NCBI RefSeq assembly: GCF_965276935.1
Contig: NZ_CBDIBS010000004.1
Coordinates: 481,306-545,305, forward strand
Direction of reading: 5' to 3'
DNA from: Rhodopila sp.
GTDB taxonomy: Bacteria; Pseudomonadota; Alphaproteobacteria; Acetobacterales; Acetobacteraceae
Length of the DNA stretch: 64,000 nucleotides
Part shown: piece after piece, positions 60,012 to 63,091 of the stretch
Layout of the letters: each line of letters opens with the position of its first letter
How positions within the stretch are numbered: the first letter of the stretch is position 1
The notes under the pieces: model-generated
Told to the model about the DNA's origin: nothing
What the model saw: only the letters and a program-made list of their open reading frames with translations
Database searches by the model: none
Made by a program: the position numbers and the translations under genes

Positions 60012-61325
60012 ATGGACAGCACGGTCGAAGTCCGCCCCAGCCTGATCGAGGTCAAGGACTGCCGGCAGGCTTACCACAAGGACGCCAACGCCGACCTGGT
60101 GGTGCTGGACAACGTCAATCTGACCTTGCGCGAGGGCGAGATCGTCGCGCTGCTGGGCCGCTCCGGCTCCGGCAAGTCCACCCTGCTGCGCATCGTCTCG
60201 GGCCTGCTGCGGCCGACCTCCGGCACCGTGCTGTGGCGCGGCGCTCCGGTCATGGGGCCGACTGACGGCGTCGCGATGGTGTTCCAGAGCTTCGCGCTGT
60301 TTCCCTGGCTGACGGTGCAGGAAAACGTCGAGATCGGCCTGGAAGCGCGCGGCGTGCACCGGGCGGAGCGCGAAATCCGTGCCGAAGCGGCGATCGACAT
60401 GATCGGCCTCGGCGGCTTCGAAAACGCCTATCCGAAGGAGCTGTCCGGCGGCATGCGCCAGCGCGTCGGCCTGGCCCGCGCCCTGGTGGTGCATCCCGAT
60501 CTGTTGCTGATGGACGAGCCGTTCAGCGCACTCGACGTGCTGACGGCGGAGACGCTGCGCACCGACCTGATCGACCTCTGGATGGACGGCAAGCTGCCGG
60601 TGAAGTCGGTGCTGATGGTTACCCACAACATCGAGGAGGCAGTGCTGATGTGCGACCGCATCCTGGTCTTCTCGTCCAGTCCAGGACGGGTCGCCAGCGA
60701 GTTGAAGGTGCCGTTCCCGCATCCGCGCAATCGGCTGGATGAGGATTTCCGGCAGATGGTGGACGATATCTATGCGCTGATGACCCGGCGCGTGCCGGTA
60801 GGGCCAAAGACCGCCGCCTCCGCGCCCGTTTCGCCGTTGGCCACGCCGCTGCCGAAGGTCGGCACCAACATCATGTCCGGCCTGATGGAGACCCTGGCGA
60901 CCGAGCCTTATGACGGCAGGGCCGACCTGCCGGCGCTGGCTGCGGCGTTGCAGTATGAGGTCGATGACATCCTGCCGTTGGGCGAGACCTTGCAGTTGCT
61001 GCGCTTCGCCCTATTCGAAGAAGGCGACATCACCCTGACCGCGCTCGGCCAGGCATTCGTCAATGCCGATGTGGACGAACGCAAACGTATCTTCGCCGAA
61101 ACACTGCGCCAGCACGTGCCGCTGGTGAGCATGATCCGGCAGGTGCTGGACGAACGCTGGAACCACCGCGCCTCGGCGGTGCGGTTCCGCGATGAGCTGG
61201 AAGACCACATGTCGCCGGACTACGCCGAAGACACGCTGCGGACGGTGATCGCATGGGGGCGCTATGCTGAGATATTCTCGTATGATGAGGAAGCCGAGCA
61301 GTTCGGTCTGGAGGATATTGAGTAA
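60012..61325 (+). CDS. NitT/TauT-family ABC ATPase with AAA-associated C-terminal domain
   Basis: GRSGSGKS, ELSGGMRQR, LLMDEPFSALD and C-terminal TVIAWGRYAEIF.YD. Confidence 0.9.
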   Translation: MDSTVEVRPSLIEVKDCRQAYHKDANADLVVLDNVNLTLREGEIVALLGRSGSGKSTLLRIVSGLLRPTSGTVLWRGAPVMGPTDGVAMVFQSFALFPWLTVQENVEIGLEARGVHRAEREIRAEAAIDMIGLGGFENAYPKELSGGMRQRVGLARALVVHPDLLLMDEPFSALDVLTAETLRTDLIDLWMDGKLPVKSVLMVTHNIEEAVLMCDRILVFSSSPGRVASELKVPFPHPRNRLDEDFRQMVDDIYALMTRRVPVGPKTAASAPVSPLATPLPKVGTNIMSGLMETLATEPYDGRADLPALAAALQYEVDDILPLGETLQLLRFALFEEGDITLTALGQAFVNADVDERKRIFAETLRQHVPLVSMIRQVLDERWNHRASAVRFRDELEDHMSPDYAEDTLRTVIAWGRYAEIFSYDEEAEQFGLEDIE

Positions 61326-61402
61326 GGGTTTGGCCTGGGGTTGGAGGTGCTAGAGATTTGCCGGTCCAGGACACGTCCGGGAGGTTCGCGGCGCTGAGTT
61401 GC

Positions 61403-61879
61403 TTAAGAAAGCAGCCGAAACCACCGCGGCACACGGCCGGCGTAGTCTTGCCAGGCCGCGCCGAATGATGCCGCCAAGTGCGACTCCTCCCGCTTGATGG
61501 CAAGACCCGTTACGGCCCGGGCGGCAACCGCGGCCATGCCTGCGAACCAGAGATTGTCGAACGCAAGCGCGGCGCCGGCGAGCATTAGGGTGTTGCCCAG
61601 ATAGATCGGGTTTCGAGAGACTGAGAATGGACCCGAGGTCACCAGGGCGGTCGCGGCGCGATGAGGCAGTATATTTGCGTGATGCCGGCGCATCGACAGC
61701 ATGGCTGATCCGTCGAACGCCAGCCCACTCAGCATGACAATGGCGCCGACAGGGCGGATACCGCCGGCAATGCAGCCGCTCAACGGTATCCGCCGATTCA
61801 GCGCGACCGCTGCCACCACCGCCGCACCATAGATCAGGGGTGGCCAAGGAACGGTGTTCGGAACAGTCTTGCGGTCCAT
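61403..61879 (-). CDS. Isoprenylcysteine carboxylmethyltransferase/PEMT-family membrane protein
   Basis: PWPPLIY, LVTSGPFSVSRNPIYLG, IKREE..L...FG..W.DY..RVPRW. Confidence 0.85.
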   Translation of the reverse strand: MDRKTVPNTVPWPPLIYGAAVVAAVALNRRIPLSGCIAGGIRPVGAIVMLSGLAFDGSAMLSMRRHHANILPHRAATALVTSGPFSVSRNPIYLGNTLMLAGAALAFDNLWFAGMAAVAARAVTGLAIKREESHLAASFGAAWQDYAGRVPRWFRLLS

Positions 61880-61944
61880 GAGATGTCTCGGTCGGTGACG
61901 CAGGAACTGGGTGAGGGTGTGTCCCGGTTCAGCAAGTCGGAGGT

Positions 61945-62098
61945 GATACTGCCGGCCCTTGATGTTGGCCGACAGGGGTCAACGGCCGTCGGTATCTAAT
62001 TTCCTTCGCGCGCGACCCCTCCCGCGCGTGCTTGGTCGCCCCACCAACCCCGCACGCATACCAGTCAGGCCCTTCGGGGCCTCTTGGGCCGCTGGTAT
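61945..62098. ncRNA. Candidate structured non-coding RNA/IS end (multi-hairpin)
   Basis: GATAC/GTATC stem enclosing GTTGGCC/GGTCAAC, GCGTGC-TTGGT/ACCAA-GCACGC hairpin, and ATACCAG/CTGGTAT stem enclosing AGGCCC-TTCG-GGGCCT. Confidence 0.45.
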
Positions 62099-62257
62099 AA
62101 CTTGGATGTGAGAGTCCGCACGCGGCCTGATCCGGACATCGCGGCTTCTGAACAGGCTCCGGTTCACTGGATTCCCAACCTGGTTGTCCGCTCCATGCGG
62201 TTTCCATCCGCGCATCGATAGCCTAATCTTACAGTCTCTTTTATGCAGGAGGATGTC

Positions 62258-62584
62258 GTGGGTCTCAATCGAATCGGTGTGTATGCTGCGCTGGCGGGTC
62301 TGTTGGCGCTTCCGGCGTTGGCGCAGACCACGCAGACTTCGGTCCCAACACCGCCCGCCGCGGCCACCACGACCGCAAAGCCCGCACCAGGCGCATCGCT
62401 GGTTGATATCAACACCGCATCGGCGGATGATCTCGACACGCTGCCTGGCATTGGCAAGCCCCGTGCCAGCGCGATTATCAAGGGACGCCCATACAAGGGC
62501 AAGGATGACCTGTTGAAGCGAAAGATCCTGCCGGCGAATGTCTATAACGGCATCAAGGACAAGATTATCGCAAAGCAGGGCTGA
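62258..62584 (+). CDS. Secreted ComEA-like helix-hairpin-helix DNA-binding protein
   Basis: RBS AGGAGG before GTG 62258, signal peptide, Pro/Thr linker, then [27 protein letters not shown]. Confidence 0.85.
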
Positions 62585-62734
62585 TTGCGGACTGCACAGA
62601 TACGACCGCCCGCGAGATGCTACGTCTGAGGTACTGCCGATGTGCAAGGTGATCGGATCACTCTCGTTCATCTTGCAAGAACCCTCACGCTTTCCGGGCG
62701 TTTCGTCCTTCGGCTTAAGCAGGAGATAACGCTT

Positions 62735-63091
62735 ATGACACTCAGACGCTTTGCCGTGGCCACCGCTCTGGCTATGATGCTGGCGCTCCCTGCGGCGGCG
62801 CAGACGATGCAGCTAAACCCGACAACGCCTGGTGATCCGTCGATCGGCGCGAATCCGCCCCCACCGATGTCCTCCCAGGCAAGCACGAAGGCTCGCCGGT
62901 CGAGTCCGGTGGATATCAACTCGGCATCCCCGGCAATGCTGGACGCGCTGCCAGGGATTAGTCAGGCCCGAGCCGACGCGATCGTCAAGAGTCGGCCGTT
63001 CAAGAGCAAGGACGAGCTGGTCAGCCGACATATCATCCCGCAAAACGTGTACAACAGACTTAAGGATAAAATCGTCGCGCGGCAGGGATAG
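62735..63091 (+). CDS. Secreted ComEA-like helix-hairpin-helix DNA-binding protein (second paralog)
   Basis: RBS AGGAGA before ATG 62735, signal peptide, then VDINSASPAMLDALPGIS.ARADAIV..RPF. Confidence 0.85.
   Translation: MTLRRFAVATALAMMLALPAAAQTMQLNPTTPGDPSIGANPPPPMSSQASTKARRSSPVDINSASPAMLDALPGISQARADAIVKSRPFKSKDELVSRHIIPQNVYNRLKDKIVARQG

Follow-up and report, generated by a model that had tools for sequence, protein, structure and literature searches.

A probable old MITE copy beside a PEMT-family methyltransferase gene in Rhodopila sp., and insertion of an IS1111-type element into the termini of its family

We analyzed a stretch of 64,000 nucleotides (the window; C4:481306-545305) from the genome of Rhodopila sp., which is assembled into four contigs of 6.05 Mb in all, with 64% GC and an estimated completeness of 99.3%. 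Within the window, two divergent genes are separated by a gap of 363 nt that holds a hairpin-rich unit at positions 61944-62100. The features of this locus are as follows.

61403 to 61879, minus strand: gene for a PEMT/ICMT-family membrane methyltransferase, 158 aa, from the ORF list (Pfam PF04191, E = 1.2e-13)
61944 to 61946, no strand: left flanking triplet TGA, at the position of the target duplication; its middle base no longer equals that of the right triplet
61947 to 62097, plus strand: body of the putative MITE, 151 bp, from TACTGCC to GCTGGTA (nhmmer profile match C4:543249-543405, E = 2e-28)
61947 to 61994, no strand: left palindromic module (hairpin 1), the terminal inverted repeat (TIR) TACTGCCGGCC paired with an internal inverted copy, GGCCGTCGGTA, and an inner GTTGGCC/GGTCAAC stem
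61995 to 62057, no strand: core module TCTAATTTCC-TTCGCGCGCGAC...CGCCCCACCAACC-CCGCACGC, the part best conserved across species and genera, with many invariant alignment columns
62017 to 62036, no strand: 20-nt subfamily insertion CCCTCCCGCGCGTGCTTGGT, missing from most copies in the alignments
62059 to 62097, no strand: right palindromic module (hairpin 3), TACCAG...CTGGTA, which is the right TIR
62098 to 62100, no strand: right flanking triplet TAA
62243 to 62584, plus strand: helix-hairpin-helix (HHH_3, ComEA-like) gene, 143 nt from the MITE (Pfam PF12836, E = 2.4e-10)

Open reading frames that overlap the unit were spurious, and none carried a Pfam domain. The HHH_3 gene is the first of two tandem paralogous genes (62243-62584 and 62642-63091) for small, secreted-looking ComEA-like proteins that lie directly downstream of the unit. 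In relatives, in which DNA identity here is approximately 70 to 75%, the PEMT and HHH genes are not adjacent.

An earlier note on this DNA had described three stem modules, and the motifs that it quoted were all found at the positions given: GATAC (61945)/GTATC (61992) around GTTGGCC/GGTCAAC, GCGTGC-TTGGT/ACCAA-GCACGC at 62026-62057, and ATACCAG (62058)/CTGGTAT (62092) around AGGCCC-TTCG-GGGCCT. The multi-hairpin fold is real, as the 157-nt unit forms three hairpins and folds better than its shuffles on both strands (z = -2.1 for plus and -3.2 for minus); taken as a whole, the gap of 363 nt folds no better than shuffles (z = -0.4 and -0.5). In the minimum-energy fold, the stems of hairpin 1 are present, but the 14- and 8-nt unpaired flanks ascribed to it are not, since additional CGGCC/GGCCG pairs close most of them. 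The internal loops that had appeared bridge-RNA-like are therefore smaller than first described. The structured unit had also been thought to run directly into the ATG at 61879, whereas it stops at 61944, leaving 65 nt between it and the methyltransferase start codon.

A BLAST search of the genome with the intergenic gap gave 19 matches to its middle part, and an nhmmer profile detected 28 full or partial copies, distributed over all four contigs. We aligned the window copy with 13 other copies from the same genome and 37 copies from other species. In the consensus, a GC-rich core (TATTGATTTCGCGCGCGGCCGCCCCACCAACCCCGCGCGCA) lies between a left (TACCAACGGCC...GGCCGTCGGTA) and a right (TACCAGTCAGCCCTTCGGGCCGCTGGTA) palindrome, and the body of approximately 121 bp reaches approximately 127 bp when the TNA flanks are included. 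The window copy measures 157 bp because it has gained both the 20-nt insertion and a private internal duplication of 11 nt (approximately 62068-62078) that is found in no other copy. The insertion is otherwise common only to C4:1045496-1045643, C3:456150-456293 and two loci of another species (L080/L030). The middle hairpin of the earlier note, GCGTGC-TTGGT/ACCAA-GCACGC, exists because this insertion creates the pairing.

In a scan that took one genome per species, the core motif was matched at 65 loci, all of them in Acetobacteraceae MAGs (Rhodopila sp., UBA8620, and bins from bog and soil), and these loci yielded 81 further matches, of which 37 were full length. Among the copies in other Acetobacteraceae MAGs were many half elements, which retain the core plus the right hairpin, and some head-to-tail arrangements. 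Of 300 genomes drawn evenly from the family, six, belonging to three other genera, contained the motif, and the distribution of the repeat across genera is patchy. Pairwise identity between copies ranged from 72 to 97% in this genome (mean, 84.5%) versus 95 to 100% in two other species. These identities fit bursts of spread, with the window copy as an old member of the family.

Both ends of the repeat carry TIRs of the form TACCA[AG]C.G.C...[CT]TGAC, so that the outer ends read TACCA...TGGTA, and in the copies of this genome the two ends match at 16 to 18 of 25 bases. Identical TNA triplets flank 35 of the 48 full copies, and in 38 of the 48 the two sides have the same middle base (binomial P of approximately 3e-12 for chance equality at p = 0.3). 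All four bases are used at the middle position (T 14, C 8, A 7, G 6). This pattern is a 3-bp target duplication. In the window copy, the flanks are unequal by one mismatch (TGA versus TAA), which fits an old insertion.

The stems covary, and their pairing exceeds chance. Across 39 copies from several species, the alignment cells paired in 88.8% of cases, versus 26 to 40% when the partners were slid by one to three columns, and eight pairs had changed on both sides. The changes were from G-C to C-G or A-T and favored neither strand. Hairpin 1 shows covariation between species in its outer stem (columns 13/55, 15/53 and 17/51), and its loop sequence is completely different from species to species.

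The repeat thus has the features by which MITEs are recognized: it is small (less than approximately 300 bp) and without coding capacity, it has TIRs and a target duplication, it occurs in many dispersed copies, and a candidate autonomous partner with matching termini and the same duplication resides in the same genomes. We conclude, with a probability of roughly 0.85, that positions 61944-62100 are an old, diverged MITE copy. Against this reading stand the unequal flanks of the window copy, the limited sequence shared with the candidate partner (7 nt plus TGAC), the TA duplication that is the norm in the IS630 family, and the strong conservation of the core. The part of the earlier note that saw non-coding, hairpin-rich sequence of a non-autonomous mobile element is borne out. 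As far as our searches show, the family is undescribed, though it belongs to a well-known kind of element. As a neighbor of the MITE copy, the methyltransferase gene is neither its cargo nor part of the element.

To find a partner, we searched the genome for paired T-N-A-TACCA and its mirror with matching N, which revealed a unit of 1180 bp in four places; a looser terminus regex that tolerated mismatches gave approximately 1500 chance matches. The element delimited in this way, without its flanks, is as follows.

C1:474041-475214 (L087:504-1677), C1:6442-7615, C2:834794-835967 and C4:1988880-1990053: IS630-family element, 1174 bp

Its two overlapping frames carry HTH_29/HTH_33 and DDE_3 domains, and the NCBIfam model transpos_IS630 scores 91 bits on the 211-aa first frame alone, where the model cut-off is 100 bits. 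The four intact copies are 99.7 to 100% identical, and two more copies are interrupted. In all five copies with both ends, the TNA flanks match (TCA, TTA, TAA, TTA and TAA). The ends of the element, TACCAACCGACAAATGAGCTGACTC and TACCAAACGACTCATGAGGTGACCG, agree with the MITE ends of this genome only in TACCAAC, the terminal 7 nt, and in a block, TGAC, at positions 20 to 23. The MITE is not a deletion derivative of this element.

The relatives of the 1174-bp element for which paired ends could be recognized, in G181 and G041 of another genus, also have TACCA ends and matching TNA flanks. G181 contains 17 matches to the MITE core motif at one mismatch or fewer, and its IS630 relative (65% amino acid identity) has the ends TACCAGCCGGCT and TACCAGCCGACT between TTA flanks. 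The end of the resident MITE in G181, TACCAGCCGGCC, matches TACCAGCCGGCT of that relative at 11 of 12 bases; in the Rhodopila genome, the corresponding pair both start with TACCAA. These observations suggest that the termini of the insertion sequence and of the MITE change together between genomes. We infer that the transposase of the 1174-bp element may mobilize the MITE in trans, given the shared termini and duplication; it is possible that a different or extinct transposase does so.

An HTH plus DDE_3 transposase and a length of approximately 1.1 to 1.2 kb are features of the IS630 family. IS630-family elements normally duplicate TA, not TNA, and the 1174-bp element is therefore a variant within the family as to its target duplication. 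A literature search on TNA duplication in bacterial IS630 elements gave nothing specific; non-TA duplications (TAA and TAAA) have been reported for the eukaryotic pogo/Fot elements (PMC7386202). Genome-wide, we counted 77 DDE_Tnp_1, 28 DDE_3 and 11 IS110-family (DEDD_Tnp_IS110) domain matches, and other candidate partners among the insertion sequences were examined and rejected. The TNA duplication had suggested a partner of the IS5/IS1031 type, but the 871-bp IS5-family element of this genome (nine copies) has GAGCCTG ends and CTAG-type targets, and the Harbinger-like domain PF13359 is absent from the genome. Two other IS630 groups, of 1059 bp and 1499 bp, insert at ordinary TA targets and end in unrelated sequences. 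A second MITE family, approximately 110 bp long and unrelated to the first, was also seen, at C4:93569-93678 (L091) and C3:1757518-1757628 (L092); its two copies share the same TACCAACG termini and have matching flanks (TGA/TGA and TTA/TTA), and approximately 2 kb downstream of each lies a member of another IS630 group.

The earlier note had pointed to a resemblance to sequence upstream of IS110 transposases. This was correct, as near-identical sequence lies approximately 75 nt before the start codon of an IS110-family transposase gene at C1:371564-371686 and C3:456150-456293. We mapped the boundaries of the element to which these genes belong.

C3:456290-457619 (L003:1629-2958), with further copies at C1:371062, C2:168876, C2:887298, C3:197487 and C4:1277698: IS1111-type element, 1330 bp

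These six copies are among the DEDD_Tnp_IS110 matches of the genome. The gene for the 338-aa transposase, which carries DEDD and Transposase_20 (PF02371) domains, starts approximately 75 nt from the left end and is followed by a non-coding region of 239 nt. The element has subterminal inverted repeats of 12 bp (GTGGACGGCCCC and GGGGCCGTCCAC), within the 11 to 13 bp of the IS1111 subgroup, and it shares with that subgroup the downstream non-coding region and both transposase domains. The defining properties of IS1111-type elements, including a rule that the ends extend 7 bp beyond the left and 3 bp beyond the right repeat, are taken from PMC11187229.

In six of six copies, the junctions have the same form, in which ...[CT]TG is followed by TTGGGGTGGACGG... 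at the left end and ...CCGTCCACACATG is followed by GTATNA at the right end. When the 7-bp/3-bp rule is applied, the insertion point falls between GGGCCGT and TGGTATNA, without target duplication and in one orientation. Two copies have the MITE as their left flank (C1:371564-371686 and C3:456150-456293), a third has the right end of the IS630-family element there (C2:887207), and the remaining three adjoin another TACCA-type terminus on that side. Rejoining the flanks of the C3 copy gives TTA-TACCAACCGCCC, with a matching TTA at the opposite end of the MITE. The tip of the MITE is thus the insertion target of the IS1111-type element and not an IS110 end, and the resemblance described in the earlier note arises because the tip of the repeat serves as this target.

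The 239-nt non-coding region of the IS1111-type element folds very stably (z = -7.1). It contains ACCAACGG, which is complementary to the top strand across the junction, and GCCGTT-TATACC; the left half of the latter equals the top-strand left flank, and its right half is complementary to the right flank. Matches of this kind to both target strands have been described for IS1111 seekRNAs (PMC11187229). The matches, of 6 to 8 nt, are suggestive only of a scheme in which the downstream non-coding region would guide insertion into the MITE/IS630 terminus. IS1111-type relatives in G267, G041 and G272 occupy different targets, and a three-way alignment of their non-coding regions, partly spoiled by a misoriented reference, gave no clean guide covariation. 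In another Acetobacteraceae MAG (DAICYU01), the inner arm of hairpin 1 in the MITE copy at L057:6000-6136 reads GGCCGTCCACCCATGGTAT, which resembles the right end of the IS1111-type element (GGGGCCGTCCACACA followed by TGGTAT); it is possibly a footprint or a second insertion site.

With these boundaries in hand, the proposal that the region is an orphan left end of an IS110-family element, with a bridge-RNA-like guide that is now fused to the methyltransferase gene, making it a co-opted leader or a non-autonomous cargo element, becomes extremely improbable. It can draw on the multi-hairpin fold and on the two loci at which the repeat precedes an IS110-family transposase gene by approximately 75 nt, but the mapped ends of all six copies leave the repeat outside the insertion sequence, and it adjoins only two of them. 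That insertion sequence is moreover of the IS1111 type, with approximately 75 nt upstream of its transposase gene and its 239-nt non-coding region downstream. IS110-family elements have neither TIRs nor target duplications, whereas the repeat has both. Instead of two guide-bearing internal loops, the folds are three simple palindromes, and the second of these depends on an insertion that most copies lack. Nor does a passenger gene occupy the place of a recombinase: the window contains no IS110-family gene (no DEDD or Transposase_20 match), and the methyltransferase gene is a mere neighbor whose ATG lies 65 nt beyond the end of the unit. Spread as a REP/BIME-like repeat by a RAYT, a Y1 transposase of the IS200/IS605 type that acts on single-stranded hairpins, rather than as a DDE-mobilized MITE, might be suggested by the modular architecture with its palindromic units, half elements and head-to-tail arrangements, and REPs are likewise targets of IS110-family elements (PMC12288879 and PMC5896051). 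However, Y1_Tnp (PF01797) had no match in this 99.3% complete genome, in which positive controls were matched, and a clear 3-bp target duplication is not a product of Y1 transposases. As the termini match those of an IS630-family element and a conserved GTAG-type head was not seen, we consider this mode of spread very unlikely.

A further reading holds that the unit is primarily a structured RNA (a small RNA, a cis-acting leader or a 3'-UTR stabilizer) whose core is under host selection and which is carried on, or derived from, a mobile element. Its stems covary, its minus strand folds with a z score of -3.2, the 45-nt consensus core (TATTGATTTCGCGCGCGGCCGCCCCACCAACCCCGCGCGCATACCAG) hardly varies between genera, in contrast to the divergent loops, and MITE-derived small RNAs are known in Coxiella (PMC5896051). 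The covariation is strand neutral, however, as expected of paired transposase-binding sites, and the copies decay within this genome to a mean identity of 84.5%. Orientation relative to the flanking genes showed no significant bias (7 versus 14 and 5 versus 11; P of approximately 0.2, with crude GC3-based gene calls). Neither a sigma-70 promoter nor an intrinsic terminator consensus was found in 61700-62400. The Rfam search that the earlier note had proposed gave no family match in 61300-62800; permissive scans of this interval and of the insertion sequence locus L003 returned chance-level matches or none. Taken together, these data make a primarily RNA-based element unlikely.

For the MITE, the proposed mechanism is that a DDE transposase acting in trans binds both termini, excises the element and pastes it into a TNA site, with duplication of the three bases; the best candidate for this enzyme is encoded by the 1174-bp element of the IS630 family, whose TACCAAC termini and TNA duplication are the same as those of the MITE. 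The hairpins would then be a single-strand view of nested inverted repeats, and the covariation may reflect that both arms have to stay the same protein-binding sequence, a constraint that does not require an RNA function. The window copy presumably landed in the divergent promoter region between the PEMT-family and ComEA-like genes. One of its flanking triplets would later have changed at a single base, and the copy would have gained the 11-nt internal duplication that the rest of its subfamily lacks. The 1330-bp IS1111-type element uses the MITE/IS630 terminus as a site-specific target, probably by means of a guide RNA, and interrupted MITE copies are found just upstream of IS110-family transposase genes because the element targets this terminus. 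We infer that the MITE serves no host function.

One feature of the family sits less easily with a purely selfish element. Across species and genera, the 45-nt core is almost invariant, and the hairpin-1 loop is wholly replaced. In a purely selfish MITE, one would not usually find the core better conserved than the outer hairpin loops, and this pattern hints at some selected function. A more elaborate model can be built on this, in which the core is a selected module, be it a small structured RNA or a site bound by a protein, that has been spread to promoters and 3' ends; the IS1111-type element would act as a natural RNA-guided "anti-transposon" that splits IS630/MITE termini and so disables them, and together with a TNA-duplicating IS630 lineage these would form a three-layer transposon-on-transposon system. 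We regard this model as speculative and rather doubtful.

The family bears comparison with several known systems. RUP of Streptococcus pneumoniae is a MITE that shares only its termini with its partner insertion sequence, IS630-Spn1. Like the Correia (NEMIS) elements of Neisseria, the properties of which are summarized in PMC10969869, the repeat is a non-coding MITE of approximately 100 to 160 bp with TIRs and a short, fixed target duplication, and it likewise occurs as tens of dispersed, mostly intergenic copies with strong hairpin potential and with subfamilies that differ by internal indels. Unlike Correia and RUP, it duplicates TNA (3 bp) and not TA, and each of its ends is itself a palindrome, so that the terminus motif occurs four times per element. 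It also differs from both in that its internal core is more conserved than the sequence beside the termini and in that its hosts are uncultured, Rhodopila-like Acetobacteraceae. The 1174-bp candidate partner resembles the IS630 family of the IS630/Tc1/mariner group in its HTH and DDE_3 domains and in a target that contains T and A, but departs from the classical TA in duplicating TNA with any middle base.

Precedents for the IS1111-type element lie within its own subgroup: IS4321 and IS5075 insert into the inverted repeats of the Tn21 family, IS1111 into QMITE2/REP sequences of Coxiella, and ISPpu9 into REPs (PMC11187229 and PMC5896051). Like these, the 1330-bp element inserts without duplication, in one orientation and at a fixed position in the terminus of another element; what sets it apart is its target, the end shared by an IS630-family element and the MITEs associated with it. 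The likeness of the repeat to the bridge RNA of IS110/IS621 is superficial only, consisting in a multi-hairpin, non-coding segment beside some IS110-family transposase genes. Unlike that RNA, the repeat lies outside the boundaries of the insertion sequence, has inverted termini and a target duplication of its own, is without a linked recombinase in the window, and lacks the two-loop guide architecture.

These results remove a tempting but wrong lead, according to which a passenger gene accompanied an orphan bridge RNA, and put a tested explanation in its place. They document a hitherto undescribed MITE family from uncultured Acetobacteraceae of soil and bog, together with a likely IS630-family partner that makes an atypical TNA duplication, and they provide a clean natural case of an IS1111-type element that targets the terminus of another transposon. 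For those who mine genomes for IS110/IS1111 guide-target pairs, the repeat beside the recombinase gene is in this instance the target, a trap for automated bridge-RNA discovery. Two points remain mildly unusual: that an IS630-family element duplicates TNA, and that the core is so strongly conserved.

The survey of insertion sequences also bore on the assembly itself. The same DDE_Tnp_1 insertion sequence lies at C1:21-668, C1:667183-667830, C2:21-668, C3:10-654 and C4:2509096-2509743, so that all four contigs begin or end in it and the assembly breaks at a repeat.
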